NCBI GenBank assembly: GCA_964648855.1
Contig: CAZYLT010000011.1
Location: 2,158 to 66,157 of the forward strand
DNA: 64,000 nt
Direction: 5' to 3'
From: an uncultured archaeon
GTDB lineage: Archaea > Asgardarchaeota > Thorarchaeia > Thorarchaeales > Thorarchaeaceae
Shown here: one piece after another, positions 8,696 to 60,180 of the stretch
Position numbering within the stretch: the first letter of the stretch is position 1
Layout of the letters: each line of letters begins with the position of its first letter
Notes under the pieces: model-generated
Seen by the model: only the letters and a program-made list of their open reading frames with translations
What the model was told of the DNA's origin: nothing
The model's database searches: none
Made by a program: the position numbers and the translations under genes

Positions 8696-8783
8696 GATCT
8701 GGCAACCCAAGCCGGAACTAGCCAAGTTAGTTGCTCCACAATTCTTTTAACTGTGCAAATGTCGAACCAATTTGAACATGACT

Positions 8784-8891
8784 GGGCCGGTAGTTTAGCC
8801 TGGTTCTACAGTCCGTTTACGGCCTGTGGCGGGAAAGAATGCCTCCTTGGCATGGAGGAGGTCTCGTGTTCAAATCACGACCGGTCCACCA
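8784..8891 (+). tRNA. tRNA-Ala(GGC) with a ~30-nt intron 5' of the anticodon stem (D-arm region)
   Basis: Acceptor GGGCCGG/CCGGTCC contains the G3:U70 Ala identity pair; uninterrupted anticodon arm CCTCC-TTGGCAT-GGAGG; variable AGGTC; T-arm TCGTG-TTCAAAT-CACGA; discriminator A, CCA encoded. About 51 nt lie between the acceptor and anticodon stems where 19 are expected. Confidence 0.65.
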
Positions 8892-8993
8892 CTCACTCTT
8901 CTTTCCAAGATATAACTCGTTCTCCAGAAGGCAATCCCTCACTTAAGGATTAGCAGAATCGAAAATCTGTTGATATTCAATTTACAGAGTTTG

Positions 8994-9350
8994 CTAAACG
9001 AAAATCTCCTTCACAATATCCTGCAGAATCAAATAGTCAGCGAAATTGCCACTTCCTCGCTGCAACCCCTCCGGATAGACTCTCTCCACTCGCTGCTTGA
9101 AGGCATTCAACTGCTGTCTTACTTCTGGAACCTCAGAAGTCACAAGGGCAGTGAATACCATATATTTGCCGATTTCATGCATCATCTTCAGCTCTTTCGA
9201 GCGTATTTTCTCAGGGATCAAGGATGGATTTTTCTTGAAATCAGCATCAAAAAAGTGAGAATAAAGCGGTTGACCGGTGTTCAACTCAAGAATCAGACAA
9301 CCAAGTATGTTCGAAGGCATTTCTGTTCGAAATGAATCATGAAACATCAA
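8994..9350 (-). CDS. small roadblock/LC7-like protein (tentative)
   Basis: 118 aa; SNILGCLILELNTGQPLYS...KYMVFTALV pattern similar to the 4276..4668 protein. Confidence 0.3.
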   Translation of the reverse strand: MMFHDSFRTEMPSNILGCLILELNTGQPLYSHFFDADFKKNPSLIPEKIRSKELKMMHEIGKYMVFTALVTSEVPEVRQQLNAFKQRVERVYPEGLQRGSGNFADYLILQDIVKEIFV

Positions 9351-11261: not shown

Positions 11262-11799
11262 TTACTTCACCGTTTACAGAATCTCAGTCGGAGCAGGGTG
11301 CTCTCTCGATTCTTCACGAAGCTTTTGAGCTTATCTTAAAAACATGACGATGTAATAACCTGTTTTGGACAGATATTGCGAATTTGAGGTGCCTCAATCT
11401 TTTGTTTTCTAAGCATTCTTTTAGAGAGTCTGACAGGTCGTACAATAGAATGTTCGCCGGTCATATTCTCCAATGTTCTCTCTTTCAATCTTCGTGCCAC
11501 ATTCGCATTTTTGTCGATATTACACCAAGTCTTGGTTTGAATGAGGGACAAAGGTGTTTGTCCTACTGGCACTTTCTGGGATCGGTCTTGTCCAGCCAAA
11601 TAAGAGAATGATTGAGGCTGGGTTCAGAATTAGAATGCACAACTACGTCATCTTTGCACTGGATATCTTCACAAGCTTGGCGAAGGATATACCAAGAGCA
11701 ATCATGACAGTGCAGACCGTTTTCTTTTAACGACTCACCTCCGATAAACAAGTTCTGTTCCGTAGCTTTGAAAAGGAAACGATAGACAGCTATTATCAA

Positions 11800-12303
11800 A
11801 TGCCATCTATTGAACGCATCAAAAAACGGCACCTCCTCAAAAAGAGAGACCATCGAGAAGAGGTTGAAAGAATAGAAGAGCGACTTGGTATCCTGGTCGG
11901 ACTAGGCGAAGACGATAGATTCGAAGAAGGAATCTTGGACGACGGGACAAGAATTTTGATTCTGGGTGATGATATTCTTTTCTTTGAGAAAGACAAAAGA
12001 TTGTTCCCGACAGTACACGCCTTGCTGAAGGACATGGTGAAGATTCCTGAAGTTACTGTTGACATGGGCGCAGTACGTTTCGTCATAAACGGTGCAGATA
12101 TCATGCGTCCCGGGATTACCAAAATCGATGACGGAATAGAGAAGGATTCAGTAGTGGGCGTTATTGAAGAGCGGCACGGGAAGGCCTTGGCTGTCGGAGT
12201 GGCTCAGCTAGACTCTCAAAACATGCGTGCTGCAGACACTGGCAAGGTCATTCTCAATGTGCATCATGTGAATGACGAGCTTTGGGACTTCAGCAAGGAC
12301 TAA
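11800..12303 (+). CDS. PUA-domain RNA-binding protein (Tma20/MCT-1-like)
   Basis: C-terminal PUA signature VINGADIMRPGI...GKALAVGVA. Confidence 0.55.
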   Translation: MPSIERIKKRHLLKKRDHREEVERIEERLGILVGLGEDDRFEEGILDDGTRILILGDDILFFEKDKRLFPTVHALLKDMVKIPEVTVDMGAVRFVINGADIMRPGITKIDDGIEKDSVVGVIEERHGKALAVGVAQLDSQNMRAADTGKVILNVHHVNDELWDFSKD

Positions 12304-42820: not shown

Positions 42821-42925
42821 CACAAAGTATGCCAAGGTTATGTGGCTTGTGGCTTGCACATTAATTACTGGCATAATGGGCGGATATTCATTCGACCGCT
42901 TGGGTACTCGATGAGGCTATCAATA

Positions 42926-43519
42926 ATGAACAAGACCAGCATTGAAGTGGAAATAAAAATCAAGATTGACAATCTGGAGGCTGTAGGGCGACAATTAGAA
43001 TCAATGGGGGCTAAGCTGAAGAATTCAGAAAAACAAGTCGACTTGTACTATAACCATCCATGTAGGGACTACTCGGTGACAGATGAAGCTCTGCGCATTA
43101 GAAGAAGAATCCTCGTTAAAACAGAGGGTGAAGAGAGCAACCTAGATAAATTTCCCCTCATCGAGATCACATACAAGGGGCCCAAACTTGACGAATCTAC
43201 TAAGACGCGGGTCGAGCACTCGGTCGGAGTCAATAGTTACGAGAATGCTAAGCTCATATTCTCCTCTCTCGGTTTCATAGAAGTTGCTAGCATTGAGAAG
43301 CAGAGAGTCTTCTATACACATGGCGACATTACCATCAGCCTTGACAATGTACTCGATGTTGGGTGTTTCATAGAGCTCGAAAGAATAGTTACTAATCCTG
43401 ATTTGCTTGGCAAGGCCCGAAAAGAGATTCTAGAGTTGGTTGAATCCCTCGGATACAGTATCAAGGATTCAATTCGAGAGTCCTACCTAGAATTATATCT
43501 TGCAAAAAATCAATCTTAG
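42926..43519 (+). CDS. CYTH-domain (triphosphate tunnel metalloenzyme) protein
   Basis: N-terminal EVEIKIKI (ExExK) motif and later acidic beta-strands; start at MNKTS (ORF extends to 42842). Confidence 0.65.
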   Translation: MNKTSIEVEIKIKIDNLEAVGRQLESMGAKLKNSEKQVDLYYNHPCRDYSVTDEALRIRRRILVKTEGEESNLDKFPLIEITYKGPKLDESTKTRVEHSVGVNSYENAKLIFSSLGFIEVASIEKQRVFYTHGDITISLDNVLDVGCFIELERIVTNPDLLGKARKEILELVESLGYSIKDSIRESYLELYLAKNQS

Positions 43520-44361
43520 CTAACTAGACCCATTTCTTTCTCTAGCTGAACCACAAATTCCTCCAGTACATTATGGCGATCTTGAGCCATCTGTTGTCCA
43601 ATATCTGTATACATGAGGTCACGTAATTTCAGGAGTTTCTCGTGCGCATGCTGAAGAAAACCTTCGATGCCACGATTATCAACTGATGATTGCGCAACAG
43701 CTCGAAATACTCCAATAGCTCCTATTGCGTCTAGCTTATCAGCATCACTTAGAATCTTTCCTTCGACATTTACGGCTTCTAAGCCTTCACTGAACCTATG
43801 TGTTCTAATCGTTTGAATAACAGACTCAATCTCTGAGTCCGAATAGTTAAGGGTCTCCAGAATCTCTACACTCATTTCTCCTGAGAGTATCGAATGAGAC
43901 TTTCCCGCCTCCTTTTCGAAAGGTCTACCGATGTCATGGAGCAGTGCGGAAGCGCCTAGTACTCGAATATTCACTTCCTCCTTTTGCGCCATCTCCAGTG
44001 ACAGACTCAGGACTCGCTCAATGTGAGCATAAGTATGTGCTCCTATTTCATCATCGCCAAGAGTCTGTTTCACGTACTCTTCAATAGGTTCCCTCGGGAA
44101 CTCGGTGATGTCTTTGGAATGATTCAACTGTAGTGTCTTCCTATATCGATTTATTGAAGGGAGCCATGCAAGAAATCCTTTAAACACTACCCTCAGAAAG
44201 TCTGAATACCACCTGAGGATTTGCCTCTGTAGTGAAGTTTGTGGCTTCACAGATGCACGCCCAAGGAAGCCTAGAGGGACGCCATTGAGTGCCAGCAAGA
44301 CAGAGACCAAACGAAAAATGGGACTAGTCACAATAGCTAGCTCCTTATTCATTATTGCCAC
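43516..44361 (-). CDS. HD-domain phosphohydrolase
   Basis: H...HD...D pattern (HTYAHIERV, LLHDIGR, DADKLDAIG); N-terminal limit uncertain, annotated start overlaps the divergent giant gene. Confidence 0.6.
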   Translation of the reverse strand: MAIMNKELAIVTSPIFRLVSVLLALNGVPLGFLGRASVKPQTSLQRQILRWYSDFLRVVFKGFLAWLPSINRYRKTLQLNHSKDITEFPREPIEEYVKQTLGDDEIGAHTYAHIERVLSLSLEMAQKEEVNIRVLGASALLHDIGRPFEKEAGKSHSILSGEMSVEILETLNYSDSEIESVIQTIRTHRFSEGLEAVNVEGKILSDADKLDAIGAIGVFRAVAQSSVDNRGIEGFLQHAHEKLLKLRDLMYTDIGQQMAQDRHNVLEEFVVQLEKEMGLVS

Positions 44362-47300
44362 TATCGTTTGGGGGACTTATACCCTCATCATGATCCAGAG
44401 TGGAAACGTTAGAGCATATCAGCCACATCAACCATTCGATGAGATTCCTCCTTGGGAATATGACCTTGATTGGGCTGGTGGACGAACCAACTGGTTTGAG
44501 AATGTGAACTACACTGATATTCCACTAGACCAAGAATTACCAGAGAATCTTCTTGAACAGATGGAAAATGTTGTATTTATCGCAGAACCGGACCAACCTG
44601 CTCAATTATGGCGGAATAGTGCTTACGATCAATACGACGGCTCAGGGTGGTCAAAAACTCAGGCTTCGCAATACACATTTTCTGGCATCTCACAAGAAGA
44701 CGCGACAAATCAAGGTAATACTATCTATACAATTTACCTCAATGTTTCTGTTGGACCTAATGTCGGTGAGATTGAATTGCCGACGATTTTTCCAGAGGCT
44801 CAGGTAATCCAAGGCTCATTTCAGAGTGAACCTGCAGGACGCATTGAGAGTTATGAACTCTCTACCGATGATTATGGCACTGTACGATTTAGCCCCATGC
44901 TTTTGGGAGATACAAATGAAACTATTGTCGTAAGCTACGACGTGACATATACAGAACAAAATCAACAGAATATCTCGGATAATGCAGTAGAAGGCAGTGC
45001 TGCCCCAGCTAGTATCTCCAGTCTCTATACTGACCTCTCCCTAGTGGATGAATTGACTCCTCGCGTTCAAAATGAAATAGACCCATTCCGTGATGTGGGG
45101 GACAATGCGTATCAGAAGGCACGTGCAGTTGAAGTATACTTTCGTGATACTTATGACCTCATAATTGATGAGGAGCGCATAAATGAGAGACCTCCAAGTG
45201 ACCGTGAAGTAACAGATTGGTTTATAGAACGAGGCGGGGGGCTGCCTATGGACTTCGCTACCGCCTATTGTGTCTTCATGCGCGACTTAGGAATCCCTGC
45301 AAGAATGACAATAGGTTATGCGCTTGGGGATGCTCAAGATGGCTATCGAATCGTCCGAGTACGTCATATGCTGTTTTATGCAGAGGTCTTCATTCCTCTT
45401 CAGGGTGGCGGCGGTGAGTGGATACAGGTCATACCTCTAAGTCTTCCCGATAATATGGGCGGTGGTGAACTCCCTGCAAATGCAGGAGAGGGAAATGTTT
45501 CACTGTACGTGTTTCCACCTCAATGGTCTCTCATTGGGGAGCCATTCAACTTGAGTTCGCTCCTCCTAGTTAATGACATCCCTGTGGCTAGGAATGAAAC
45601 AATTGTGTTTCATGATGAAACAGACAACGTTCCAATGGGCACAGCAGAGATTGAACAGGGAACTTACTTACCCTTGGCGAATATCACCTATACATTCCCC
45701 GATAATGCAACAGTTAGCGCCCATAATATATCCGCAACTTGGAATTCTGATGCCTATTCGGTGAGCAATTTCACCATAGTATATGCTGTCGGTGAAGCTA
45801 ATCCATTGTCGCCACAATCCGTTAGAACGAGCTCGAGTTTTATGCCAAGCGAAACAACCGATGTGAATATCAAGCTGGGACTTGATAATTACACAGCTCA
45901 TTGGGAGGATATCCTTCACGTCTATGGCACCCTTACTGTCAATGGTCAACCTGTGGACGGCACAACACTGGATAACGATCAGATGCAGATAATGTGGGAC
46001 GAATTGTTCTATGGAAATGCCACAATTCAATCGGACGGTTACTATGAGATCGATATCTATGTTGACCCTGCTGATCTCCTTCGCATGACAACGGGTGACC
46101 ACTTGCTATGGGCTCAGTATGCTGGTGAATACGACAGCGAAACAGGATTTCCCGTCATATTGCCGGGTCGATCCCAAGATAACTCCACGGTGGAAGTTCG
46201 TGGCCATCCAAGCTTTGGCCTCTCAGTGTCTCCGACTGATACCTATGCTGGTTCAACCCTCACATATGAGGGGGTGCTAGAACTACTGAATGGTACGCCG
46301 CTCGTAGGTGAAACAGTTGGTATTATTCTAAATGGTACATTGGTTGATACGACCACGACTAATAGCTCAGGAGGATACATGTATGACTACAGTATTCCAT
46401 GGGATTATCCTGCAGGCACTGTTTACGCACAAGTCAATTGGACTTCAGGACTCACATTGATAGATGGAAATACAAGCGCCTCGATATCCGTGATTATCAG
46501 AGCCGGCCTAACCGACCTCACCATCGATTCATCACCGCGTTCGCCCGACCCAGTACATATCTTTGAGAACATAACCATCTATGGATATCTTACTGATGCC
46601 TCAAACGGAACTCCTTTGGCTGAACGAACAATAGACATTTGGTGGGAGGAAGATGGTTCGCCAGTACAAATCGGAAGCAATACTACAACAGCGACCGGTT
46701 ATTATGAACTTGTATACACAGTTCCAAGCGGTTATGAAGGTGAAGTGACCTACTGGAGTGAATTCTCATCAACGGAACCATATTATCAGAGCAGTCGCTC
46801 AGTGAACCTTTCAATTATCGTGAAGAAGTATGACGTCACCATCACTATCTCAGCTACTCCTGACCCGGTTAGCATTTCAGAGATTGTTTGCATCGAAGGT
46901 TTGGTAACTCTGCCGGAAATCCCTGCCTTGCTTCGAGATGCTCATCTAACAATCTGGTGGCACAACTCAACTGGTACCTATAACATTACTGGGATATACA
47001 CAAATTCAACTGGTGGCTACCTGTTTGATTACCAGGTCCCCATAGACCATGAATTGGCAGCTGTGGAGGTCTGGACACAATTTATCTCTCCGTCTCCAGC
47101 ACTGGCAAGTAACGAGTCCCAACATATCTCATTGTCAGTTTCAAACTACGCCTCAATTATCTCAGTCGATTCAAACTCAACCATTGTGCATTTGAATGAG
47201 TCCATTCTCATCTATGGCAATCTGCATTTGAACAACGGAACTCCGCTAGCGGGTTATACGGTGCAGATACAGTGGGACAACGGGTCCGTATACTACTTCA

Positions 47301-50300
47301 ATGTCACAACAAATGGTGCAGGAGATTACTCATTCGTTTACAACTTCTCACTGAGTCAAGACTCAGAAGGCATAGTAGAAGTTCAGGCAATTCACACCTC
47401 TATCAATCCCATATACAACAGCTCATCGGCATGGTTAAGTCCATCTCTTATGGTGCAGCTCTATCAGCTGGACTTAACCGGCACTGTGAATGCAACCCAA
47501 GTTCATCAAGACGAAGTCCTCCTATTCTCTGGGACCCTTTCGTTTGTTGACAACGGTGCGCCAATATCCGGAGAAACAATAAGCGTCTTCTATGATCACG
47601 GTAATGGAACAGTTTCTGAATTCCTCAAGATAACAGATTCATCTGGCGGATATTCCTTCCTCTACAATTACTCATTCGCCGATGCATTGGGAGCTATCTA
47701 CATCTGGGCAGAGTATACGAGCACTAACCCTCTTTGGGATAACTCAACGTCTCCTACAAGGACTGTCCAAATAATTCTATACTCTCTCGACCTAACAACG
47801 ACAACCAATAGCTCCACCTACTACCTTGATCAGGCTGTCTTCATCTCTGGACAGCTTTCGTTCACAAACAACGGAACAGGGATTTCGAACGAACAGGTTC
47901 GTGTATTTTGGGATAATGGTACTGACGTGATTGACCTTGGTTTCCATACAACGAATTCAACCGGCTATTACAATCTGACGATTGATTTGTCGCCCCAAGA
48001 TCACTCTCCGGGAGATTTCACGATATGGGCAAACTATTCCAGTTCAAATGCGCTTTGGGATAACGCCTCCTCATCCCCAGGCACTACCATCACACTACAG
48101 CTCTATCAAGTTGTTCTTGATGTCAGTATAAGTCCAAATCCGGTATACCTCAACGAAACTGTGACTATAACGGCACATCTCTACTTTATGTTAAACGGGT
48201 CAGACATTTTCGGTGCTGAGATTACTCTGTGGTGGTATAATGGAACCGATTTCAATCTGGTGACACTCACAACAGATCCTACGGGAGAGGTTTCTTTCGC
48301 ATACGATAGGATGGACAGGGATACCACCCTCTCAGTGGAGATTTTTGCAAACTATTCGGGTTCAAGTCTTATCGAGAGCAAGGAGTCCACTCATCAGTTG
48401 CTCACCTTGTTGAGATGGTCTACAGTATTCTCTTCCATCAGTACGGGCGGGACAACCTCTTATCACCCAACGGAAACCATCGTGATATCGGGAATCTTGT
48501 ATTATGATGAACCAGATCCGGATGTGCCCTATGGAGGAGTCATAGTGGAAATCCTGATTGATGGATCTGTGGTCAATTCTACAACGACTGCCTCAGATGG
48601 ATCCTTCACTAGCTACTATACAATACCTGCATCAATTTCTCCTGGTACATACGATTTGACAACTAGATTCACTTCGTCGAACAACTGGGTGTCTGGTACG
48701 ACATCAGCCCCTGTATCCATAGATATTGATGCCTATCAACTCGTTTGGACTTTAACACTGAACAGCGCAGTATCATATCCCATCACACTGTATCGGAGTG
48801 AATGGCTAAACATATCAGGAACACTAGAATTGGACGACGGAACTCCGTATGGGGGACAGACTGTAGACATCTACTGGATATTAGTTGGCTCAGACGAACT
48901 CGCAGAATTCATTATTTCAGTCGTCACTCAACCAGATGGCTCATTCCAATACCAGTTTAGAATTAGTGATACTGAAACGCTTGGTCTCAAGGACATCTGG
49001 GCAAATTGTACTCCCACAGACCCCTATGTTGCATCAGGAGAATCCTCCTCTCGAAGTGCATTTATTGAACCGATTCCAGTTTCACTCACTGTATCCGCCG
49101 ACGTATCTTTAGCATACTTGGGCGATACTATCACAATAAACGGTACACTCACTTTTGGAAATGGTACACCTATAGTCAATGAAGACGTAGAGATTTTCTG
49201 GAATGGTGGACTGATTGCCACTATAACAGTGGAAGATGGCATAAACGGCTCCTATATTCACTATCTGGATTTACCATACTTTGAAGATGTTGGCCTGATT
49301 GCCCTCTATGCGAGGTTCGTTCAGCCATCAGAAGCCTATTCTGAAGCCGAAACACCTGAAGAAATTATCGAGGTACGCGATCTCATCACAATCAGTTTCG
49401 ATGCTCAAGAAATCTTTGTGGTAAATCGAGGTGACTCACTTGAAATGAGTGGCGGTGTCGCCAACGACGGCCGTGGAGTTGGAGACCTAGAGGTCGAACT
49501 GTTAGTCAACGGCACATCCACAGGGCTAACTACCACGACCGATTCAAGTGGCAACTTCCTCTTCACCATTGTCGTAGAATCGGACCAAGAGGCTGGTTCG
49601 TACAATCTCAGTGTCATTGCAGTATCTAGCTACCGTGAGGTATCGGCGGCATCAGACTACTGGATTGTAGATGTACACCTCCGTTCAATAGTTTCAATTG
49701 TGATTGACAGGGGTGGCGTTGTTCTTGTCGGTGAGAATCTTACAGTTAGCGTCAATGTAGTGGATGAGGATGGAAATTCAGTAGGTGGAGAATATGTTGA
49801 AATCTACCTAAACAACACGCTCATGGAAACAATTACACTGTCTGGAACTGGGCTCTTCACCACCAACATCGATATCACTAGTAGCTGGGATGGCGGGAGT
49901 GGTCATTTTGTTGCTAGGGCTGTTTTCGCCGGTGTAGGGCTTATTGACGCATCAAATGACACAAGTGATTCAACGGTACACATTGTTATGAATGTTGAAA
50001 TCATTGATCTATCCCCCTCATCCGTCCTTCCTAACTCACCATTCTCGATATCGGGCCGATTAGTGGATGAGGAAGAGAATCCAATTGTTGGGCGAAGTCT
50101 TCGAATCTATCTAAACAGTTCGTCAGAATATCAAACCCCTTCAACAGATGAAGATGGTGCTTTTACGTATTCTATTAGAACTGGGTATCCAGACCAATCT
50201 CGTTTGAACTACATTATTGCTCTTCATAGGAACGATGGGACTGAGTTCGACAGAGCATCGGGAACAGTTCTGATCCAGGCATCTTCTCCGCCCACCATAG

Positions 50301-50458
50301 ATACTGTTATGATGATGTTTTGGACTATTTCTATTGTTGCCGAGATTGTTATCGGGTCTTTGCTACTGACCCGCTATCGTTCTTCAGGTGGCCCATTCAA
50401 TCAAGGAATAACGATGGAGAAGAAAGAATCTATAGAATATAAGAAAGAAACAAGGTGA
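44285..50458 (+). CDS. giant (~2057 aa) membrane-anchored surface protein: N-terminal TM, transglutaminase-like Cys/His core, ~14 tandem prealbumin/Cna-B-like repeats, C-terminal TM anchor
   Basis: TM helix near aa 14-36; core GGGLPMDFATAYCVFMRDLGIPARMTIGYA...YRIVRVRHMLFYAEVFIP (Cys329/His361) matches the transglutaminase-like consensus; ~100-aa repeats of form xLxxxNGTPLxGxTVxIxWDNGS...TTNxxGxYSFxYNxS; many NxS/T sequons; C-terminal hydrophobic helix MMMFWTISIVAEIVIGSLLL then basic tail. Start may be at M12 (44318). Confidence 0.7.
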   Translation: MSASKTETKRKMGLVTIASSLFIIATIVWGTYTLIMIQSGNVRAYQPHQPFDEIPPWEYDLDWAGGRTNWFENVNYTDIPLDQELPENLLEQMENVVFIAEPDQPAQLWRNSAYDQYDGSGWSKTQASQYTFSGISQEDATNQGNTIYTIYLNVSVGPNVGEIELPTIFPEAQVIQGSFQSEPAGRIESYELSTDDYGTVRFSPMLLGDTNETIVVSYDVTYTEQNQQNISDNAVEGSAAPASISSLYTDLSLVDELTPRVQNEIDPFRDVGDNAYQKARAVEVYFRDTYDLIIDEERINERPPSDREVTDWFIERGGGLPMDFATAYCVFMRDLGIPARMTIGYALGDAQDGYRIVRVRHMLFYAEVFIPLQGGGGEWIQVIPLSLPDNMGGGELPANAGEGNVSLYVFPPQWSLIGEPFNLSSLLLVNDIPVARNETIVFHDETDNVPMGTAEIEQGTYLPLANITYTFPDNATVSAHNISATWNSDAYSVSNFTIVYAVGEANPLSPQSVRTSSSFMPSETTDVNIKLGLDNYTAHWEDILHVYGTLTVNGQPVDGTTLDNDQMQIMWDELFYGNATIQSDGYYEIDIYVDPADLLRMTTGDHLLWAQYAGEYDSETGFPVILPGRSQDNSTVEVRGHPSFGLSVSPTDTYAGSTLTYEGVLELLNGTPLVGETVGIILNGTLVDTTTTNSSGGYMYDYSIPWDYPAGTVYAQVNWTSGLTLIDGNTSASISVIIRAGLTDLTIDSSPRSPDPVHIFENITIYGYLTDASNGTPLAERTIDIWWEEDGSPVQIGSNTTTATGYYELVYTVPSGYEGEVTYWSEFSSTEPYYQSSRSVNLSIIVKKYDVTITISATPDPVSISEIVCIEGLVTLPEIPALLRDAHLTIWWHNSTGTYNITGIYTNSTGGYLFDYQVPIDHELAAVEVWTQFISPSPALASNESQHISLSVSNYASIISVDSNSTIVHLNESILIYGNLHLNNGTPLAGYTVQIQWDNGSVYYFNVTTNGAGDYSFVYNFSLSQDSEGIVEVQAIHTSINPIYNSSSAWLSPSLMVQLYQLDLTGTVNATQVHQDEVLLFSGTLSFVDNGAPISGETISVFYDHGNGTVSEFLKITDSSGGYSFLYNYSFADALGAIYIWAEYTSTNPLWDNSTSPTRTVQIILYSLDLTTTTNSSTYYLDQAVFISGQLSFTNNGTGISNEQVRVFWDNGTDVIDLGFHTTNSTGYYNLTIDLSPQDHSPGDFTIWANYSSSNALWDNASSSPGTTITLQLYQVVLDVSISPNPVYLNETVTITAHLYFMLNGSDIFGAEITLWWYNGTDFNLVTLTTDPTGEVSFAYDRMDRDTTLSVEIFANYSGSSLIESKESTHQLLTLLRWSTVFSSISTGGTTSYHPTETIVISGILYYDEPDPDVPYGGVIVEILIDGSVVNSTTTASDGSFTSYYTIPASISPGTYDLTTRFTSSNNWVSGTTSAPVSIDIDAYQLVWTLTLNSAVSYPITLYRSEWLNISGTLELDDGTPYGGQTVDIYWILVGSDELAEFIISVVTQPDGSFQYQFRISDTETLGLKDIWANCTPTDPYVASGESSSRSAFIEPIPVSLTVSADVSLAYLGDTITINGTLTFGNGTPIVNEDVEIFWNGGLIATITVEDGINGSYIHYLDLPYFEDVGLIALYARFVQPSEAYSEAETPEEIIEVRDLITISFDAQEIFVVNRGDSLEMSGGVANDGRGVGDLEVELLVNGTSTGLTTTTDSSGNFLFTIVVESDQEAGSYNLSVIAVSSYREVSAASDYWIVDVHLRSIVSIVIDRGGVVLVGENLTVSVNVVDEDGNSVGGEYVEIYLNNTLMETITLSGTGLFTTNIDITSSWDGGSGHFVARAVFAGVGLIDASNDTSDSTVHIVMNVEIIDLSPSSVLPNSPFSISGRLVDEEENPIVGRSLRIYLNSSSEYQTPSTDEDGAFTYSIRTGYPDQSRLNYIIALHRNDGTEFDRASGTVLIQASSPPTIDTVMMMFWTISIVAEIVIGSLLLTRYRSSGGPFNQGITMEKKESIEYKKETR
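45995..50255 (+). repeat. in-frame tandem array of ~14 degenerate ~290-300-nt (~100-aa) domain repeats inside the giant gene
   Basis: Recurrent NGTP(L/I)xG..(V/I)xIxW...GxYxFxY motif about every 95-105 aa. Confidence 0.55.
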
Positions 50459-50465
50459 AAAAAAC

Positions 50466-50918
50466 ATGCAGCTTGAAACAATAATGCCAATTGCCGCCGT
50501 TACTGGCGCCATCATAGTCGTGCTGCTATATCTCTACTACGTAAAGGGATACTTCAGAAATAGTGAATCCATCACAAGTGTAGACATGCCCCAAAAACTG
50601 CGAAAAATAAAGAAGATGGCTGATTCTGGCAAGTACGACGAGGCTATTATTCTAGCATATCGAACGTTTGAAGAGATGGTTGGAAATAAGACACGTTCGA
50701 GTCGTGCGAGCTCGGAAACAGCTCGTGAATTCACTGACCGCACATTGAAGATTCTTCCACTTGACGCTGAGAAAGTTGATACCTTTATCGGCATCTATCA
50801 GAGAGCCCGGTTCTCAAATCACAAAGTATCCCGCGATAGCTATGAATCTGCAATCAAGATATTCACAGACATCTATCCTCGCATAGAAGGGGCAACACCA
50901 TCGGTTGCAGCAGCTTAG
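50466..50918 (+). CDS. DUF4129-domain protein (TM + C-terminal DUF4129), transglutaminase-associated family
   Basis: N-terminal TM; C-terminal ETAREFTDR...YQRARFSNHKVSRDSYESA matches the DUF4129 pattern. Confidence 0.55.
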   Translation: MQLETIMPIAAVTGAIIVVLLYLYYVKGYFRNSESITSVDMPQKLRKIKKMADSGKYDEAIILAYRTFEEMVGNKTRSSRASSETAREFTDRTLKILPLDAEKVDTFIGIYQRARFSNHKVSRDSYESAIKIFTDIYPRIEGATPSVAAA

Positions 50919-50954
50919 ATATTACGGAGTCGGAAAATAAAGGAGTCAACGAAA

Positions 50955-52340
50955 ATGGGTTGGAAAGAAGCAATGCAAATCACGCTCTTCATTCTAGCCT
51001 GGATTCCGATTGGTTTTCTAGCTGTCACAACATTCTCTGGTGGCACAGAAGCCTACCCTCAAGATTTCTCGGTATTCAACTCGGATTGGAATGGGTTGAG
51101 TGACTATCGGATTCAGATTGAAGAACAAGGTTATGACGTTAGTGTGATTCAGTCTACAATGAGCACAGTCACTCGCTATGATGGAAATGCAGTTCTTTTC
51201 ATAATTGGTCCTGTGAGGGACTTTACAATCGATGCAACATTGACGATCTTCCAGCATATACTAGGTGGTGGTACGGTTGTTATTGCAGATGATTTTGGTA
51301 CAGCCAACACATCATTTTCATTGTTGAATGAATACCTTCTCGATGTAATCGGAGCTCAGTATCTAGAGGCACTAGGCGTTGATGGGTTTGTTTCCTTTGC
51401 CGATGGTGTTCTTCTAGATTTGGACTCCTATCACATGACGCCTAAAGTTCCTGTCATTCGCAATTTCGTCTTGCATCCCCTTACTCAGGGAGTCGATTCT
51501 CTTTATCTCAATAATGCCACAGTGCTCTCTCCAACCAGTGCACTTGGATTCGCTGGAATCGCCCGTACAACTTCTCGGGCTTGGTGTGAAACAAATATCT
51601 CCGACCCGCGTCCTTCACCAAATGAAGGTGAGCTGTCCGGTGTATTGCCCGTTGTTGGAGCAATTGATATTGGTTCTTTTCGCGACGGTGCCGGAAAGCT
51701 GGTGGCAATATCCGACCCAAGCCTTTTCATAAATGATATGTACACCAGGTTTGAGGGCAACAGAAGGTTTGCTATGAACGTTATAGATTGGGCAACAGAG
51801 GGTTCTAGCAACGACACAATCATATTTTCAGAACAGCTTCTTGCAACCCCCATTTACTCTTCTGAGTTCTTTTTTGGGGCATTTCTCGGGAGGATATTTT
51901 GGGCATCCACCAACCTGTTCCTAGCACCGGTATATCCCTTGATGACTGCAATTGGCATTAAGAAGTACTTACCAGACATGAAGAAGCCCGAAGTTAAAAG
52001 CGTGTCAGAGGTATTCATGAGGAAGGGGCAGACATACTTCAGCGAGCGCATGTCTTACTATAGAACAGAGGGCAACTATGGGCGAGTAGTGAGGATGCTA
52101 TATCGTCGATTGCGACGTGGATTACAAAAACAATACCATTGGACACAGTTTGACCCCCGTGAGTTATGGGAGATTGTGAGCCATAAAATGCCCAACATGG
52201 AGAAGGAAACTTTCTTCGAAACAATTGATAGAATTGAAGAAATAAAATCGAAGTCGGACATCAAAATTAGTGAAGACGAAATGATGAGTTTGTTCTTCTG
52301 GATGCGTGACATCCAAACCAAACTGATTGAAACAAAATGA
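50955..52340 (+). CDS. DUF4350-like membrane protein
   Basis: N-terminal TM, extracytoplasmic domain with GGTVVIADDFG block, second TM, basic cytoplasmic tail; position between DUF4129 and MoxR as in bacterial MoxR/DUF58/TGase clusters. Confidence 0.4.
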   Translation: MGWKEAMQITLFILAWIPIGFLAVTTFSGGTEAYPQDFSVFNSDWNGLSDYRIQIEEQGYDVSVIQSTMSTVTRYDGNAVLFIIGPVRDFTIDATLTIFQHILGGGTVVIADDFGTANTSFSLLNEYLLDVIGAQYLEALGVDGFVSFADGVLLDLDSYHMTPKVPVIRNFVLHPLTQGVDSLYLNNATVLSPTSALGFAGIARTTSRAWCETNISDPRPSPNEGELSGVLPVVGAIDIGSFRDGAGKLVAISDPSLFINDMYTRFEGNRRFAMNVIDWATEGSSNDTIIFSEQLLATPIYSSEFFFGAFLGRIFWASTNLFLAPVYPLMTAIGIKKYLPDMKKPEVKSVSEVFMRKGQTYFSERMSYYRTEGNYGRVVRMLYRRLRRGLQKQYHWTQFDPRELWEIVSHKMPNMEKETFFETIDRIEEIKSKSDIKISEDEMMSLFFWMRDIQTKLIETK

Positions 52341-52354
52341 GGTAGAAGATAATA

Positions 52355-53341
52355 ATGACTGCAGAATCGACAGATACGACCATGGGAAACTCAGAATCTC
52401 CCATGTCTATATCACAGGTACATGATATTACAGACGAAATCATCCGTGAGTGTGGCCGAATCATAGTTGGAAAAGTTGAAATCCTTAGAGACGTTCTGAT
52501 TGCGTTTCTATCTGACGGACATGTTGTACTTGAGGGCGTTCCTGGCTTGGCAAAAACCTACATGGCTAGAACATTTGCATCAATACTAGGATGTGCGTTC
52601 AAGAGAATTCAACTAACAGTTGATACATTGCCCGCTGACCTACTGGGAACAAATGTTTTCAATCAGCAGACTGGCGAATTTTGGTTCCGAAAAGGGCCAG
52701 TCTTTGCGAATCTGGTTCTTGCTGATGAAATAAACAGATGCCCTCCAAAATCACAGAGCGCTCTATTAGAGGTAATGGAAGAGCGTCAGGTTTCCACTGA
52801 GGGTGTCACGCGGAAGCTACCTAGGCCGTTCCTAATCATTGCCACACAGAACCCGGTTGAGCAAGAGGGCACCTATCCACTTCCTGAAGCTCAGCTTGAT
52901 AGATTCATGTTCAGATTAGTTTTGGATTACCCTACTGGAGCTGAAGAGGCAGAAGTCATTCGTCGTAAACATAGAGGTGAAGTTGATGACCTCCGAGTAC
53001 TGGTGAATCCACAAAGCATTGTCAAACTGCAAGATGCTTGTAAAACTGTGTACATGGATGAGGATATCATTGAGTATATTCGAGATATTGTGGTCAGAAC
53101 CCGCAACGACCCACAGATCTTGCTGGGAGGGTCTCCTAGAGCGTCCCTCGTTCTTATGAATGCGTCTAAGACGCGGGCTGCCATGCTTGGAAGAGATTAT
53201 GTGATTCCTGAAGATGTAAGAAAACTCTCGTTACAAACCCTAAATCACAGGCTCATTCTCAAGCCGGAGGCTGAGCTTGAAGGACTCACTGTTAAGCGAG
53301 TTGTAAGCAAGATTCTCGGAGAAGTCGACATTCCAAGATAG
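52355..53341 (+). CDS. MoxR-family AAA+ ATPase
   Basis: Walker A GVPGLAKT, Walker B LLADEINRCPPKSQSALLEVMEE, sensor/arginine finger region; 328 aa. Confidence 0.85.
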   Translation: MTAESTDTTMGNSESPMSISQVHDITDEIIRECGRIIVGKVEILRDVLIAFLSDGHVVLEGVPGLAKTYMARTFASILGCAFKRIQLTVDTLPADLLGTNVFNQQTGEFWFRKGPVFANLVLADEINRCPPKSQSALLEVMEERQVSTEGVTRKLPRPFLIIATQNPVEQEGTYPLPEAQLDRFMFRLVLDYPTGAEEAEVIRRKHRGEVDDLRVLVNPQSIVKLQDACKTVYMDEDIIEYIRDIVVRTRNDPQILLGGSPRASLVLMNASKTRAAMLGRDYVIPEDVRKLSLQTLNHRLILKPEAELEGLTVKRVVSKILGEVDIPR

Positions 53342-53352
53342 AACCCAGAGGA

Positions 53353-54684
53353 TTGCGAATATTGATAACACAGAGAGGTTGGATTGTTCTCTTTTCCGGC
53401 GTGTTACTACTCACTAGTGGATTCTCCTTTGATAATTTCTACCTCACACTGGTAGGAGTATATTTACTCGTTGGATTAGTGGTGACGCTTCCTCTCTTCG
53501 CAATGACAGCAAATCTTTCGGGAATAGAAGTTGAGCGCTACATCGATAAGACGAAAATTTTCTCAGGTGATTTTCTCAAGGTCAAAGTAGTTGTAAAGAA
53601 CACCTCAAGAAGACACTTTGACTTTATCGAGGTACATGATCAATATCCCGAAACCTGGATATTGGCGATCGGCGAAAATTTCATCGCATCACGAATCGAA
53701 CCCAATAGCAGCATTACTTTTTCATATATTGTTCAGGTCAGAATGCGCGGTTCCTATTATCTAGGACCAACTGAGGTCATAATGAGGGACCGACTGGGCC
53801 TCCATTTCTACAAGCGCACAGTTAGAGAAAGAACCCAGATGCTTGTGTACCCAACTTGGAAGGATGTACGAAGACTCGAAGCTATCGGGAAGCAACGGCA
53901 ACTGGGACTGATGTTCGGAGCTCATAGAACAAAGGTCGTTGGTATGGGTACTGACTTTGCAGGTTTCAGAGATTATGTCCCAGGTGATGCTTTCAGGGTA
54001 ATTGATTGGAAAAGCAGTGCTCGACGTGGGGATATGATTGTCAAACAATATGAGATGGAGAAAAACGTCCAAATCATCTGCATGGTTGACTCCTCGGGAA
54101 GTATGGGAAATGGCTATCCTGAAAACACCAAACTAGAATATGCGATACGTGCAGCTGTACTTCTAACTAATCTTGGGCTAGAACGCAAGGACCTTGTGGG
54201 CACCTGCGTCTTCAGCAATCTGGTGCATTCATATGTTTCCCCCTCTTTGCATCCGAATCATATGTACGACGTTTTGGAGGCATTGGCACGTGCGGAGCCC
54301 ACTGGCTGGAGTAACTATGAGGCTGCCATATCTCATGTGACCAGTCAGACAAAGAATCGTTCATTCATAATCTGGCTCACAGACCTGGAGGAGTCTCCTG
54401 CTCCACTGCTCAATGCCATGAAGAAAGTCGTTGCGAATGGGCACCAAGCTATGGTCATCAGTCCCTTTGGTCCGTGGTTTGAGGCACCAATAGGTCAATT
54501 CGGCCCTGTTGAACGAGTGTTAGCTGAAGCGGTTTCAGAAGAATTATGGGAGCGCCGCCTCAAGATTTCTAGAGCGCTTGCCAGATTTAGCATAGATGTT
54601 ATCAATGTGGGTCCAGAGGATTTCTTGCCAACAATAATCAAACAATACGAGAATGCAAAGCAACGGGGGGTTGGAATGTATTGA
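53353..54684 (+). CDS. DUF58-family protein (vWA-like, MoxR partner) with two N-terminal TM helices
   Basis: DUF58 signature FRDYVPGDAFRVIDWKSSARRGDMIVKQYEMEKNVQIICMVDSSGSM (DxSxS MIDAS-like). Confidence 0.75.
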   Translation: MRILITQRGWIVLFSGVLLLTSGFSFDNFYLTLVGVYLLVGLVVTLPLFAMTANLSGIEVERYIDKTKIFSGDFLKVKVVVKNTSRRHFDFIEVHDQYPETWILAIGENFIASRIEPNSSITFSYIVQVRMRGSYYLGPTEVIMRDRLGLHFYKRTVRERTQMLVYPTWKDVRRLEAIGKQRQLGLMFGAHRTKVVGMGTDFAGFRDYVPGDAFRVIDWKSSARRGDMIVKQYEMEKNVQIICMVDSSGSMGNGYPENTKLEYAIRAAVLLTNLGLERKDLVGTCVFSNLVHSYVSPSLHPNHMYDVLEALARAEPTGWSNYEAAISHVTSQTKNRSFIIWLTDLEESPAPLLNAMKKVVANGHQAMVISPFGPWFEAPIGQFGPVERVLAEAVSEELWERRLKISRALARFSIDVINVGPEDFLPTIIKQYENAKQRGVGMY

Positions 54685-56069
54685 AGACAGTCACATGGAT
54701 TCTAAGAGCACTTTCAACGTTGGCATTCATTGCCATGTGCTGGATTGTCTATAACATTATGTCTGGCTTATGGGATTGGAACGCTCCGTATGTCTTCATA
54801 GTCACGACCTTCAGATTGCTTTCAATGGTGCTGTTTTTTGTTGCGTCTATAGTTATTACCGGATTAGTAGCTGGCATCACAGGTTCCCAACCAGGCCCAC
54901 TCGTAGTTGGACTGTACAATACACTGGTGTTGAGAGGATGGTATCTGCAACCGTTTGGTGTCAGCGGTCCTTTCACCTCTGTGGAGGCAATATTTCAGAA
55001 CTTCATTTTCAACTTGTTCAATATTTGGGAGATATTGCAGGTTAATACTTTCATCTTCATCTATTTCCTGTTCGCCGCACTGGGTGTCGCATTATTCCTC
55101 CAATCTCTCGTCAGAATGAATCACAAATTTGTTGGAGGGGCATTTTTGGCTATTCAGGGAATCTTGGTGATGGCCGCATTTGCAGAATTTCTTGTTAGCC
55201 AAGGTATAATCACGGCACCACTCTTGGCCACTGCAGATATTCCCAACTTCGAGCTCTTTCCGACTGACATTCTTGTATTTCTCACCAGCAGCCCTCAAAT
55301 ACTTGCACTGGTTTCATTTGCATATCTAGAGTTCAGTTACCAGATGCTGTATAGCGACTCGGTAGGAAAACCAGTTGAAGAACGAGAAGAGACCCTGAAG
55401 AAACAATTGCTGGCACTTCGACAAGAAACAAGGAAGCAAGATGAGATTGAACGTGATGAGAAGATCAGAACAACAGGAATGAGTAGCGTTTCTGGAGCCA
55501 CCGCATTTTCTTTCTTGAGAGAGGCAATTGAACGCAAGGTTCTTGGTCGAAAAGATGCAATCGAGAATCTTGATGTAATCTCTGACGTAAGACGATTACA
55601 GATTTTTGTCGATGAATTGCTTAGTTCTGACCCCGAAGCAAAAAACAACTTGACTGCTTCTGCGGCAGCCCCCTCAGAAAGTTATGTCATCATATCTACC
55701 ATACTGGGTTCTACAATTCGTTTTGCTGGTGTCATCATGCTATCGTTTGTTTTCATGAATCCCGCATTCTTCATAGCTTTCTTCAACCTGCCTCCTGGCA
55801 TACAAAACAGTGTCGAGATTGCACAGCCTGAAATGGTTGTCTTCTTCCTTCTACCTATCTTGTTATTGTTCCCCCTTGTTGCCATGATAATCGTATTGTT
55901 TACAAGAGATGAGGTAACCACCCCGGACAAGGAAAAAACTGAGGTCAAGAAGGAGAGCATAGTCCAGAAGCCGGCAAGAAGAAGGAAACGAGCCTCAAAG
56001 TCGAAAAGGGAACGCAAGCCTGAAGAAGATGAATGGGACCGAGCTCTTGAAAAAGAATTCAAACGATGA
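54681..56069 (+). CDS. polytopic membrane protein with charged C-terminal tail, last gene of the MoxR/DUF58 cluster
   Basis: At least 8 hydrophobic segments; start overlaps the DUF58 stop (ATGA); Lys/Glu/Arg-rich C-terminus. Confidence 0.4.
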   Translation: MKTVTWILRALSTLAFIAMCWIVYNIMSGLWDWNAPYVFIVTTFRLLSMVLFFVASIVITGLVAGITGSQPGPLVVGLYNTLVLRGWYLQPFGVSGPFTSVEAIFQNFIFNLFNIWEILQVNTFIFIYFLFAALGVALFLQSLVRMNHKFVGGAFLAIQGILVMAAFAEFLVSQGIITAPLLATADIPNFELFPTDILVFLTSSPQILALVSFAYLEFSYQMLYSDSVGKPVEEREETLKKQLLALRQETRKQDEIERDEKIRTTGMSSVSGATAFSFLREAIERKVLGRKDAIENLDVISDVRRLQIFVDELLSSDPEAKNNLTASAAAPSESYVIISTILGSTIRFAGVIMLSFVFMNPAFFIAFFNLPPGIQNSVEIAQPEMVVFFLLPILLLFPLVAMIIVLFTRDEVTTPDKEKTEVKKESIVQKPARRRKRASKSKRERKPEEDEWDRALEKEFKR

Positions 56070-56087: not shown

Positions 56088-57059
56088 TTGATGCAGAGTG
56101 TTGTACTTACCCATGGTGATGTAGATGGCATAACAGCTGGCGCAATAGCCTTGCTCGTTTCTCCTGGTGCTACCTTCTACTTTACACGACCATCCCAAAT
56201 ACACATGGATTTATTTCGTATAGCAAAGGATCGTCCCGATAAGGTCCGTATAAGCGACATAGCAGTCAACAGGAAGCGATTTCCGGAAGTTATTCGGGCC
56301 CTTGATAGGTTTCCCAATCACACCGAAATTACTTGGATTGACCATCATCCAATTCTTAGCAAACATAGGAAGGAATTGGAAAAACGAGTTGACTTCTTTC
56401 ATGAGAAGGGCCCAAGCGCGGCTGAATTAGTTTACAAAAAATACCAAGAGAAGCTTCCTGAACACGCCATCCATCTCGCACTATATGGAGCGATTGGTGA
56501 TTTTTGTGATGACACCCCATTTGCAAGAGAACACCTGGAAGACTATGACAAAAGAACACTCTACCTTGAAGCAGGGCTTTTAGTACAGGCTCTGCAAGAA
56601 ATAGACTATCGCAGAGAATCCAAAGACCTTGTTCGAGAGCTTACATTGGGAGTACCTCCCAGTTCTATGAACAACATCGTCGAGCTTGCAATGAAAGCCA
56701 CAAGAATTGAACATGAGGTCTTCAATTATGTAAAACAAAACGCTCGGAAGATGGGTGAGGTAGGATATATCTTGGATATGCCAATTTCAGGATACCGTGG
56801 GAAATCCGCAAAATTTGCTGCATATGTCACACAATCCCGTGTAGGAATAAGCGCCAGGTCTTTCGCTGATGTGATAGATATGAGCCTGCGAAGAAGAGGT
56901 CCACGTGTTGATTTAAATAAGACTCTCATCGAGATTCTTTCTAGAATCGATGATGCACATGGTGGAGGGCATCCTGCAGCCTCCGGGGCGACGATGAAGA
57001 AGGAGGATTTTCCCGGATTCCTTCAGAAATTGACCGAGTATGTTTCCGAGAGGACCTAG
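56088..57059 (+). CDS. DHH/DHHA1-family phosphoesterase (NrnA-like nanoRNase / pAp phosphatase)
   Basis: LTHGDVDGITAG (motif I/II), WIDHHP (DHH motif), GGGHPAASG (DHHA1 GGGH). Confidence 0.7.
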   Translation: MMQSVVLTHGDVDGITAGAIALLVSPGATFYFTRPSQIHMDLFRIAKDRPDKVRISDIAVNRKRFPEVIRALDRFPNHTEITWIDHHPILSKHRKELEKRVDFFHEKGPSAAELVYKKYQEKLPEHAIHLALYGAIGDFCDDTPFAREHLEDYDKRTLYLEAGLLVQALQEIDYRRESKDLVRELTLGVPPSSMNNIVELAMKATRIEHEVFNYVKQNARKMGEVGYILDMPISGYRGKSAKFAAYVTQSRVGISARSFADVIDMSLRRRGPRVDLNKTLIEILSRIDDAHGGGHPAASGATMKKEDFPGFLQKLTEYVSERT

Positions 57060-59799: not shown

Positions 59800-60180
59800 A
59801 TGTCTGATCCTATTATGGAAGCATACACACAAGCATATGAAGCGTCGAACCAGATGATTCAAGCCTTTGGAGTAATCAAGTCCGATGGGTCTGTTCTCTG
59901 GCAAAGCAATAACTGGGATTTGAGTGGTGATGCCCAGCAGCTAATCTCTGCTGTAAACAATCAATCAGCAAGTGTGAAACAGAATGATGTGAAATATAGT
60001 ACCATCAGAACAAGTCCTGAGAGCTTGGTTGCTAGGAATGTCCAAGGAAATGGAACTCTTATCCTTGCGAAGATTGAAGACGATAAATGGGTTGTTGCAT
60101 GGGCGGGTGCTGATGCGGCACCTGACAGTGTCTATGTGGATGTGGATCGCGCAGCCAAAGCACTGAAAGGACAAATATAG
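59800..60180 (+). CDS. profilin homologue 1
   Basis: 126 aa; block structure of eukaryotic/Asgard profilins (GVIKSDGSVLWQSNNWDLS...VKYSTIRTSPESLVARNVQGNGTLILAK...KWVVAWAGADAAPDSVYVDVDRAAKAL); note 'Loki profilin' GKDGKIITQTENWNIS / IKYMIVEN / GKGHVLICPI layout. Confidence 0.65.
   Translation: MSDPIMEAYTQAYEASNQMIQAFGVIKSDGSVLWQSNNWDLSGDAQQLISAVNNQSASVKQNDVKYSTIRTSPESLVARNVQGNGTLILAKIEDDKWVVAWAGADAAPDSVYVDVDRAAKALKGQI

Follow-up and report, generated by a model that had tools for sequence, protein, structure and literature searches.

A Thorarchaeota gene cluster linking a MoxR-DUF58 module with a giant repeat protein and its predicted transglutaminase-like pseudoenzyme head

A 64,000-nucleotide (nt) stretch of DNA from an uncultured archaeon (contig CAZYLT010000011.1), called the window throughout, carries a run of six same-strand genes encoding a giant repeat protein, a DUF4129 protein, a DUF4350 protein, a MoxR-type AAA+ ATPase, a DUF58 protein and a polytopic membrane protein. 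We propose, at somewhat better than even odds (roughly 55%), that MoxR and its von Willebrand factor A (vWA) partner form a membrane-tethered module which acts from the cytoplasm on DUF4129 and the further membrane partners and thereby assembles, holds or switches the giant protein, a glycosylated and non-catalytic component of the cell surface. The evidence that carries this proposal is the replacement of all three catalytic residues in the transglutaminase-like head of the giant protein, the conservation of the ATPase and vWA motifs beside it, and the repeated joining and separation of the giant protein and DUF4129. An earlier interpretation made from the letters of the DNA (the sequence-only reading) had seen a real system and described it largely accurately; what it had wrong was the chemistry, in that it took the catalytic core to be present.

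Results

The six-gene cluster

The open reading frame (ORF) listing of the window gives a run of six genes on the forward strand from 44285 to 56069:

44285..50458, + strand: gene 1, giant surface protein, 2057 amino acids (aa), TTG start
50466..50918, + strand: gene 2, N-terminal transmembrane segment (TM) and DUF4129, 150 aa
50955..52340, + strand: gene 3, DUF4350 / GldG-like (ABC_transp_aux), 461 aa
52355..53341, + strand: gene 4, MoxR-type AAA+ ATPase, 328 aa
53353..54684, + strand: gene 5, DUF58 with vWA, 443 aa
54681..56069, + strand: gene 6, polytopic membrane protein, 462 aa

Genes 1-5 lie 7, 36, 14 and 11 nt apart, while genes 5 and 6 share 4 nt. These coordinates bear out the tight packing that had been proposed, with gaps of 7-36 nt, except that the overlap, given earlier as ATGA, reads TTGA. 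Transglut_core, DUF4129, DUF4350, AAA_3 and DUF58, the Pfam families expected from the sequence-only reading, were all matched, and gene 6 was left without a family. Scans with NCBIfam and PADLOC added nothing specific for the cluster, and PADLOC gave no match.

A transglutaminase-like head without the catalytic triad

From its N terminus, the gene 1 product has a TM, a TgpA-like head, 14 Ig-like repeats, a second TM and a 28-aa basic tail:

44321..44389, + strand: N-terminal TM, aa ~13-35, by hydropathy; the AlphaFold2 model has a helix at 14-38
44522..45484, + strand: head resembling the TgpA periplasmic domain, aa ~80-400, made of a beta-sandwich and a transglutaminase-like core
45800..50230, + strand: tandem repeats, aa 506-1982, 14 x ~100 aa, beta-sandwich (CarboxypepD_reg / prealbumin / Big_1 / MG4-like), sequon-rich
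50297..50371, + strand: C-terminal TM anchor, aa ~2005-2029, by hydropathy, followed by a short basic tail

Pfam places Transglut_core (PF01841; 43 bits, cutoff 23) at aa 273-382. An AlphaFold2 model of aa 1-440, made with 16 homologs in the alignment, has a mean predicted local distance difference test score (pLDDT) of 72.8, with core blocks at 80-94. Its best Foldseek matches are 6g4h (E 3e-11) and 6g49 (E 6e-11), with template-modelling scores of 0.65-0.68 on the target; both are crystal structures of the periplasmic domain of Pseudomonas aeruginosa TgpA. As a fold, the transglutaminase-like core read from the sequence is therefore confirmed in the model. Gene 1 has no Pfam match to PF11992 (TgpA_N, DUF3488), and hydropathy gives it a single N-terminal TM.

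The Cys/His core assigned earlier, Cys329 in AYC and His361 in VRH, does not occupy the catalytic positions. A phmmer comparison with 6g49 aligns 'SGFCAHYA' with 'GGLPMDFA', 'AHAWVE' with 'HMLFYAE' and 'WLSVDP' with 'WIQVIP', which puts Pro321 (45245-45247), Leu363 (45371-45373) and Ile383 (45431-45433) at the places of the canonical Cys, His and Asp. An identical correspondence emerges when the head is aligned by MAFFT with six bacterial TgpA-like proteins. We compared these columns in 29 Thorarchaeota sequences (the window and 28 further loci) and the six bacterial ones. The Cys position is Pro in every one of the 29, the His position is Leu, Met, Ala, Val, Thr or Phe, and the Asp position is Ile, Leu, Val or Phe; all six bacterial relatives retain Cys, His and Asp or Glu. 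Because the triad is replaced throughout these 29 sequences, we assign the head as a pseudoenzyme that has lost all three catalytic residues, an assignment built on three sequence alignments and a fold match. The missing triad predicts that the protein has no transglutaminase activity.

Along the helix, Cys329 lies eight residues beyond the canonical Cys position. Most orthologs have it, but Ser or Thr replaces it in three loci and Ser or Ala in three metagenomic homologs, so it cannot be an essential nucleophile. His361 is invariant and sits two residues ahead of the canonical His position. The best-conserved stretch of the head is the one around the former active site, where 23 of the 33 positions from 308 to 340 are invariant or nearly so. 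This conservation, together with the invariance of His361, points to a retained non-catalytic function such as the binding of a ligand or partner.

A long repeat stalk between two membrane segments

The N-terminal TM is probably an uncleaved signal anchor, since W29, Q38, R43, P47 and H48 are invariant across 16 homologs of gene 1 and such invariance would be unusual in a cleaved signal peptide. The public gene call begins at Met36, and with it the N-terminal TM is lost. The TTG start at 44285 is supported by a dozen homologs that keep the same N terminus, 'MSA...KR' followed by the TM.

A search profile seeded with a single repeat recovers nine repeats at E<1e-5, and the iterated profile recovers all 14, in agreement with the ~14 tandem ~100-aa units noticed earlier, along with a doubtful fifteenth at aa 405-487. 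Among the ORFs of the window, the repeat is confined to gene 1. Repeated, weak Pfam matches to CarboxypepD_reg, DUF6795, MG4, Big_1, SdrD_B and SpaA run along gene 1. The dozens of N-glycosylation sequons claimed for the protein amount to 61 N-x-S/T sites, against 22 expected from composition, and over 26 orthologs the median excess is 2.7-fold.

ORF and hydropathy also agree on a giant protein of ~2057 aa with a TM at each end, and the frameshift that might have split it is absent: the ORF is unbroken in the window and in 25 further species-level genomes. The proteins encoded by these 26 complete genes range from 1747 to 2369 aa and hold 11-17 repeats, with both terminal TMs, the C-terminal one included (26/26), in all of them. 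The repeats disrupt assembly, and many database homologs of the giant protein are therefore truncated, at contig ends or at N-gaps. None of the 19 close homologs in the protein database reaches 730 aa, and the majority carry the label 'partial'. In two Thorarchaeota 'chromosome' records a scaffold gap of 100 N coincides with the giant gene, at 11764-11863 of locus L002 (CP070658.1) and at 6477-6576 of locus L018 (CP070761.1). In L002 the other genes of the cluster do not lie next to the giant gene; assemblies are broken or misjoined by the repeat region.

DUF4129 as a separable part of the giant protein

Gene 2 encodes one N-terminal TM (hydropathy) followed by a DUF4129 domain (PF13559, 38.6 bits) that is predicted to be cytoplasmic. 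It matches the C-terminal TM-DUF4129 part of bacterial TgpA, and bacterial TgpA-like proteins carry TgpA_N, Transglut_core and DUF4129 in one chain. Among the 26 full-length giant orthologs, 11 carry DUF4129 as a direct extension of the C-terminal TM, several of them with a 130-aa DUF4129 gene in addition (fused or extra copies are tied to loci L016, L019, L023, L026, L029, L035, L036, L041, L043, L044, L045 and L047). The DUF4129 module has undergone repeated fission, fusion or duplication. The 11 fusions lead us to read genes 1 and 2 as the halves of a single TgpA-type protein that has gained an inserted repeat stalk, and this alternation between fused and split forms provides a physical tie between the surface protein and the cytoplasmic module. 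A conserved Glu of DUF4129 (in 'TxxE') was considered as a universal ligand of the metal ion-dependent adhesion site (MIDAS) and dropped, because it is Gln in the Heimdall-type proteins described below.

The ATPase, its vWA partner and two membrane proteins

Gene 4 is a MoxR of the AAA_3 plus AAA_lid_2 type, with Walker A and B, arginine finger and sensor 2. It matches AAA_3 (PF07726) with 209 bits and AAA_lid_2 (PF17863) with 74 bits, as well as AAA_5; the match to Pfam bpMoxR is above threshold (42 bits) and far below that to AAA_3. The motifs GVPGLAKT (Walker A), LVLADEINR (Walker B), EAQLDRF and GGSPRA are intact in 44 of 44 orthologs. Among solved chains, the nearest to the gene 4 product is the MoxR structure 2r44 (E 2e-78); AAA domains of eukaryotic midasin come next. 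By hydropathy the ATPase is the sole product of genes 1-6 without TM helices, and it is soluble and cytoplasmic. The gene 5 product matches DUF58 (PF01882, 98 bits) and VWA_2 (PF13519, 40 bits), and consists of an N-terminal TM hairpin of two hydrophobic helices and a vWA domain with a MIDAS of the DxSxS type (DSSGSM); the motif, D[STAC]SGSM, is intact in all 44 orthologs.

Gene 3 matches DUF4350 (PF14258; 50 bits, cutoff 30.4) and ABC_transp_aux (PF09822; 40 bits, cutoff 34.7). Its product runs from an N-terminal TM through a DUF4350/GldG-like domain and a hydrophobic segment at aa ~300-335 to a C-terminal domain of ~125 aa. That last domain was tried as a second DUF4129, and BLASTP showed no similarity.

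The gene 6 product has about five N-terminal TMs, a long helix at 204-268, a cytoplasmic helical region, two C-terminal TMs and a very basic tail. Its AlphaFold2 model (pLDDT 82) is all-helical, with the 65-residue helix at 204-268, and has no specific match to any solved fold. The protein has no Pfam, NCBIfam or PADLOC match, and no Pfam family rises above chance in 48 members of its family. The family is small, with 80 cluster representatives among 1.84 billion proteins, and its single invariant residue is Glu217, at the base of the long helix. The tail, aa 429-462, is extremely basic and disordered (…KPARRRKRASKSKRERKPEE…).

Hydropathy and the positive-inside rule would place the DUF4129 domain, the DUF58 vWA domain, the gene 3 tail and region 217-332 of gene 6 on the cytoplasmic side of the membrane, and the head, the repeats and the DUF4350 domain on the outside. 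MoxR and DUF58 are the most conserved products of the cluster, with median identities of orthologs to the window of 82% and 79%; the medians are 58% for DUF4129, 56% for DUF4350, 55% for gene 6, 51% for the head and 35% for the repeats, and 53-71% for unrelated flanking genes.

Conservation within and beyond Thorarchaeota

We scanned one genome per species with gene 3 as query, which gave 80 loci, and mapped the window proteins onto them. The gene order, which the sequence-only reading proposed to look for in other Asgard metagenome-assembled genomes, is conserved in about 45 Thorarchaeota-type genomes, a few of whose records are labelled Promethearchaeota, Hermodarchaeota or 'uncultured archaeon'. 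It reads PALP(-), CYTH(+), HD(-) / giant, DUF4129, DUF4350, MoxR, DUF58, gene 6, (DHH) / OPT(-), and the cluster is present in single copy at this fixed syntenic position.

Loci of Heimdall-, Hod- and Hermodarchaeota have a different giant, of ~1700-1750 aa, well conserved and with a Big_13 match only (L067, L070, L071, L073, L075 and L079-L083, at about 3900-9250 in each). Behind it come a ~180-aa DUF4129 protein, a ~590-aa DUF4350 protein, MoxR, DUF58 and a gene 6 homolog, between unrelated flanks. The N-terminal ~700 aa of this giant match no Pfam family and, by sequence, no solved structure. Gene 6 is always 3' of DUF58 in the Thor-, Heimdall-, Hod- and Hermodarchaeota loci, and among the loci examined it was seen only in Asgard lineages.

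In Methanocaldococcus, Archaeoglobi, Bathyarchaeota, Sulfolobales, Thermoplasmata and Methanophagales, a ~650-aa protein is followed by DUF4350, MoxR and usually DUF58. Ig-like (Big_3_5) matches were found in the two ~650-aa proteins that scored in Pfam, and the C terminus is weakly DUF4129-like in two of the six tested (E 3e-5 and 6e-3). Haloarchaeal megaplasmids have annotated DUF4350, MoxR, DUF58 and a 716-aa DUF4129 protein side by side. On pHBOR01 of Halogeometricum borinquense (locus L086, NC_014735.1 165647-184351) the module lies beside genes for a 1777-aa CARDB-domain protein and for dockerin, PGF-CTERM and tubulin/FtsZ family proteins.

Neither Pfam nor profile comparison found the TgpA-like head in the Heimdall-type giants or the ~650-aa archaeal proteins, and the inactive head is on that account specific to Thorarchaeota among the loci sampled. 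The conserved module is DUF4129/DUF4350/MoxR/DUF58, and the surface protein attached to it varies. Because the flanking genes differ across archaeal lineages, we take the linkage to be functional and not mere inherited synteny. The literature searched has no description of this cluster in Asgard archaea.

Discussion

Relation to characterized systems

We take PA2875 of P. aeruginosa to be a MoxR protein and PA2874 a DUF58 protein. These two genes are co-transcribed with tgpA, whose essential product has a conserved triad and periplasmic transglutaminase activity (PMC3507681); together with PMC3495828, this documents the link between TgpA-type proteins and MoxR/DUF58 on which the sequence-only reading drew. 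The Thorarchaeota locus shares with TgpA the fold of the periplasmic domain, which is the best structural match of the head, a TM and DUF4129 after the extracytoplasmic part, and the company of a MoxR ATPase and a DUF58 protein. It departs from TgpA in having Pro, Leu and Ile where TgpA keeps Cys-His-Asp, one N-terminal TM instead of the multi-TM TgpA_N (DUF3488), ~1480 aa of inserted Ig-like repeats where TgpA has no repeat stalk, and, in the locus, an additional DUF4350 protein and gene 6.

Zhang and Aravind (2012) described an operon of MoxR, vWA and a YebA-like transglutaminase-like (TGL) protein in bacteria and archaea and proposed that it serves membrane-proximal proteolysis; in the same work, inactive TGL domains are considered probable peptide-binding modules (PMC3495828). 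The three families are linked alike in the Thorarchaeota locus, but the TGL domain they proposed is active and faces the cytoplasm, whereas that of Thorarchaeota is predicted to be inactive and external.

A similar list of parts comes from the Esr pathway of oral Actinobacteria. In Schaalia odontolytica the surface protein EsrA, with 14 Ig-like repeats behind an N-terminal beta-propeller, acts together with MoxR, vWA and the transglutaminase EsrD, which keeps EsrA on the cell; Esr signals via a kinase, a phosphatase and an FHA protein (2026 preprint, doi 10.64898/2026.09.08.750141). The bifidobacterial PFNA cluster has the Esr core (PMC8430577). In these clusters as in ours, MoxR, vWA/DUF58 and a transglutaminase-like domain are encoded alongside a large surface protein that has ~14 Ig/FN3-like repeats and a distinct terminal domain. 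EsrA and EsrD are separate proteins, whereas in Thorarchaeota the transglutaminase-like domain and the filament are one polypeptide; that domain is moreover predicted to be dead, and DUF4129, DUF4350 and gene 6 are present in addition. In genes 1-7 and their flanks, Pfam and annotation turn up neither a beta-propeller nor a kinase, phosphatase or FHA family. Nor does Pfam find the families of the Bacteroides Bat operon (BatA/BatB, BatC/E TPR, BatD) in the cluster.

With the other archaeal DUF4350-MoxR-DUF58-DUF4129 clusters (pHBOR01; Methanocaldococcus, Archaeoglobi, Bathyarchaeota) the locus shares all four families, the local order DUF4350-MoxR(-DUF58), and an Ig-like surface or membrane protein that ends, where this is detectable, in a TM and a DUF4129-like segment. 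The surface proteins of those clusters are only ~650-720 aa long and have no transglutaminase-like domain, and gene 6 is absent outside Asgard archaea.

Pairs of a MoxR-clade AAA+ ring and a MIDAS-bearing vWA partner are known from CbbQ-CbbO, NorQ-NorD, RavA-ViaA and midasin, which act on Rubisco, NO reductase, respiratory complexes and pre-ribosomes. The Thorarchaeota pair has the same two components, but its vWA protein is membrane-tethered and its likely client is a surface-protein complex.

A proposed mechanism

We propose that genes 1 and 2 together make up a TgpA-type protein, consisting of a TM, an external transglutaminase-like domain, a TM and a cytoplasmic DUF4129. Compared with TgpA, the head would be dead and serve for binding or as a scaffold, a glycosylated stalk of 14 repeats would have been inserted, and the TM-DUF4129 part would have been split off. 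The products of genes 3-6 would be its partners: a bitopic DUF4350/GldG-like protein, a cytoplasmic MoxR, a membrane-tethered DUF58 adaptor and an Asgard-specific polytopic protein. The DUF58 vWA/MIDAS domain is the usual adaptor of MoxR. A MoxR hexamer would hydrolyse ATP and, through the DUF58 MIDAS, grip and remodel a cytoplasmic element, which could be DUF4129, the gene 3 tail or the gene 6 loop, and this remodelling would assemble, retain or conformationally switch the giant surface complex. There is a precedent in the finding that vWA captures a peptide, which is released in a changed conformation upon ATP hydrolysis by MoxR, restructuring the complex (Kaur et al., PMC7159879). An attractive possibility is that gene fusion took the place of covalent or enzymatic anchoring of a filament by a TgpA-like enzyme, and that catalysis was then no longer needed. 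We infer the physical contacts, the target of MoxR and the role of the surface protein, be it envelope coat, adhesion or partner contact, from this arrangement of parts, and any role in the envelope or in cell-cell contact would follow from the same reasoning.

Three points weigh against this proposal. Part of the gene order in Thorarchaeota is plain synteny, given that the flanking PALP, CYTH, HD and OPT genes are also kept. The invariance of His361 and the presence of Cys329 in most orthologs make a non-canonical site conceivable, which the head may have. And whether the N-terminal TM is cleaved decides if the head sits beside the membrane or at the far end of the ~50-nm stalk.

Weighing the alternatives

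The sequence-only reading suggested that MoxR and vWA mature or insert a cross-linking or protease-like enzyme. That the giant protein is an active surface transglutaminase or cysteine protease handled in this way by MoxR/DUF58 now looks very unlikely. Its Transglut_core match, its TgpA-like fold, the measurable activity of P. aeruginosa TgpA (PMC3507681), the invariant His361 and the common Cys329 all speak for such an enzyme, but the triad is lost in all 29 Thorarchaeota sequences, with Pro for Cys and hydrophobic residues or Thr for the others, the independent alignment to solved TgpA gives the same equivalences, and Cys329 gives way to Ser, Thr or Ala in several orthologs. With transglutaminase chemistry lost across the lineage as sampled, and the ATPase and MIDAS motifs kept, the job of the module cannot be to support transglutaminase catalysis. 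Membrane-proximal, ATP-dependent degradation, in which vWA recruits, MoxR unfolds and TGL cleaves, meets the same difficulty and strikes us as highly improbable: the three families are linked as in the operon of PMC3495828, but the scheme needs an active TGL peptidase on MoxR's side of the membrane, while the TGL domain here has no triad and is predicted to be extracytoplasmic and glycosylated, and MoxR, which has no TM, is cytoplasmic. It is scarcely credible that the adjacency is only inherited synteny of genes with no common system. The shared PALP, CYTH, HD and OPT flanks would allow it within Thorarchaeota; against it, DUF4350-MoxR-DUF58 recurs in distant archaeal phyla between other flanks and beside a surface protein bearing DUF4129 or Ig domains, 11 of 26 orthologs of the giant carry a fused DUF4129, and no gap exceeds 36 nt, with one pair overlapping by 4 nt.

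The main rival is an outside-in sensor of the Esr kind, in which the repeat filament and its head detect a ligand (a partner, an epibiont or a virus) and MoxR/vWA relays the event inward. The parts list is strikingly close to the actinobacterial Esr/PFNA clusters, the MoxR exceeds the Pfam bpMoxR threshold, and across archaea the module is preceded by differing surface proteins, in the way that sensors vary. We nevertheless regard a sensor as rather unlikely, because neither a Ser/Thr kinase nor a phosphatase, FHA protein or effector is found in or beside the cluster in the ~45 Thorarchaeota and the Heimdall-type loci. The head is not hypervariable (51% median identity, against 53-56% for ordinary neighbouring genes), it adjoins a conserved N-terminal TM and is not obviously at a free tip, and the cluster stays in single copy at one syntenic position. 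PADLOC gives no match, which leaves a reading as a defence system equally without its support. We therefore favour a cytoplasmic module that assembles, holds or switches its surface protein, and consider the Thorarchaeota locus one variant of a gene system that is widespread and functionally unexplained, rather than a pathway for maturing an enzyme.

A more far-reaching version is a long shot: DUF4129, DUF4350, MoxR, DUF58 and gene 6 might form an Asgard-wide transmembrane machine that transmits force, controlling or reading a giant partner-contact filament via the MIDAS adaptor. If that were true, its MoxR ring would be the closest prokaryotic relative of the midasin/dynein AAA domains, and the Thorarchaeota filament would be capped by an inactivated, peptide-binding TGL domain. 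The whole would then be a prokaryotic counterpart of the pairing of a MoxR-derived motor with an inactive TGL that has been proposed for the eukaryotic ciliary compartment (PMC3495828).

Few unexplained gene neighbourhoods of prokaryotes are as common as those of MoxR/DUF58 with TgpA-like, DUF4129 and DUF4350 proteins. In Thorarchaeota the sequon-rich client, at 1750-2370 aa, is likely to be a major feature of a cell surface that is still undescribed. The locus thus offers hypotheses for Asgard envelopes and cell-cell contact, and it corrects the automatic annotation of such proteins as 'transglutaminase' or 'cysteine protease'.

Origin of the window and neighbouring genes

The sequence-only reading had placed the DNA in an Asgard-like archaeon, and close homologs, which carry the name Candidatus Thorarchaeota, narrow this to Thorarchaeota. 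A 41-kb Logan contig that shares the gene order encodes an identical MoxR protein. A 126-aa profilin gene, an Asgard eukaryotic-signature protein, lies at 59800-60180 (+), 3.7 kb downstream of the cluster (Pfam 28.2 bits, cutoff 25, almost full length). On the strength of the Logan contig, the named homologs and the profilin, we consider the Asgard attribution correct. Base composition is uniform across the window.

The cluster of six is real, and the count requires one addition, a seventh same-strand gene 18 nt past gene 6 that converges on the OPT transporter gene:

56088..57059, + strand: gene 7, DHH/DHHA1 (RecJ-like), from weak matches to Pfam DHHA1 and NCBIfam RecJ_archaeal

This gene, which has a GAGG of its own and an ATG at 56091, is kept 3' of gene 6 in most Thorarchaeota loci, is absent from the other lineages, and is probably not a core member, since several Thorarchaeota loci lack it after gene 6.

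Upstream of gene 1 are a CYTH gene (42842-43519, +) and an HD gene (43516-44361, -), and with DHH three genes of nucleotide-phosphohydrolase type flank the cluster. The HD ORF is 281 aa in the window against 195-202 aa in orthologs. It is probably called too long, which would account for the 77 nt that it seems to share with gene 1; the true start is probably a TTG near 44124. A start there would leave a divergent intergenic region of ~160 nt with TATA-like A/T boxes.

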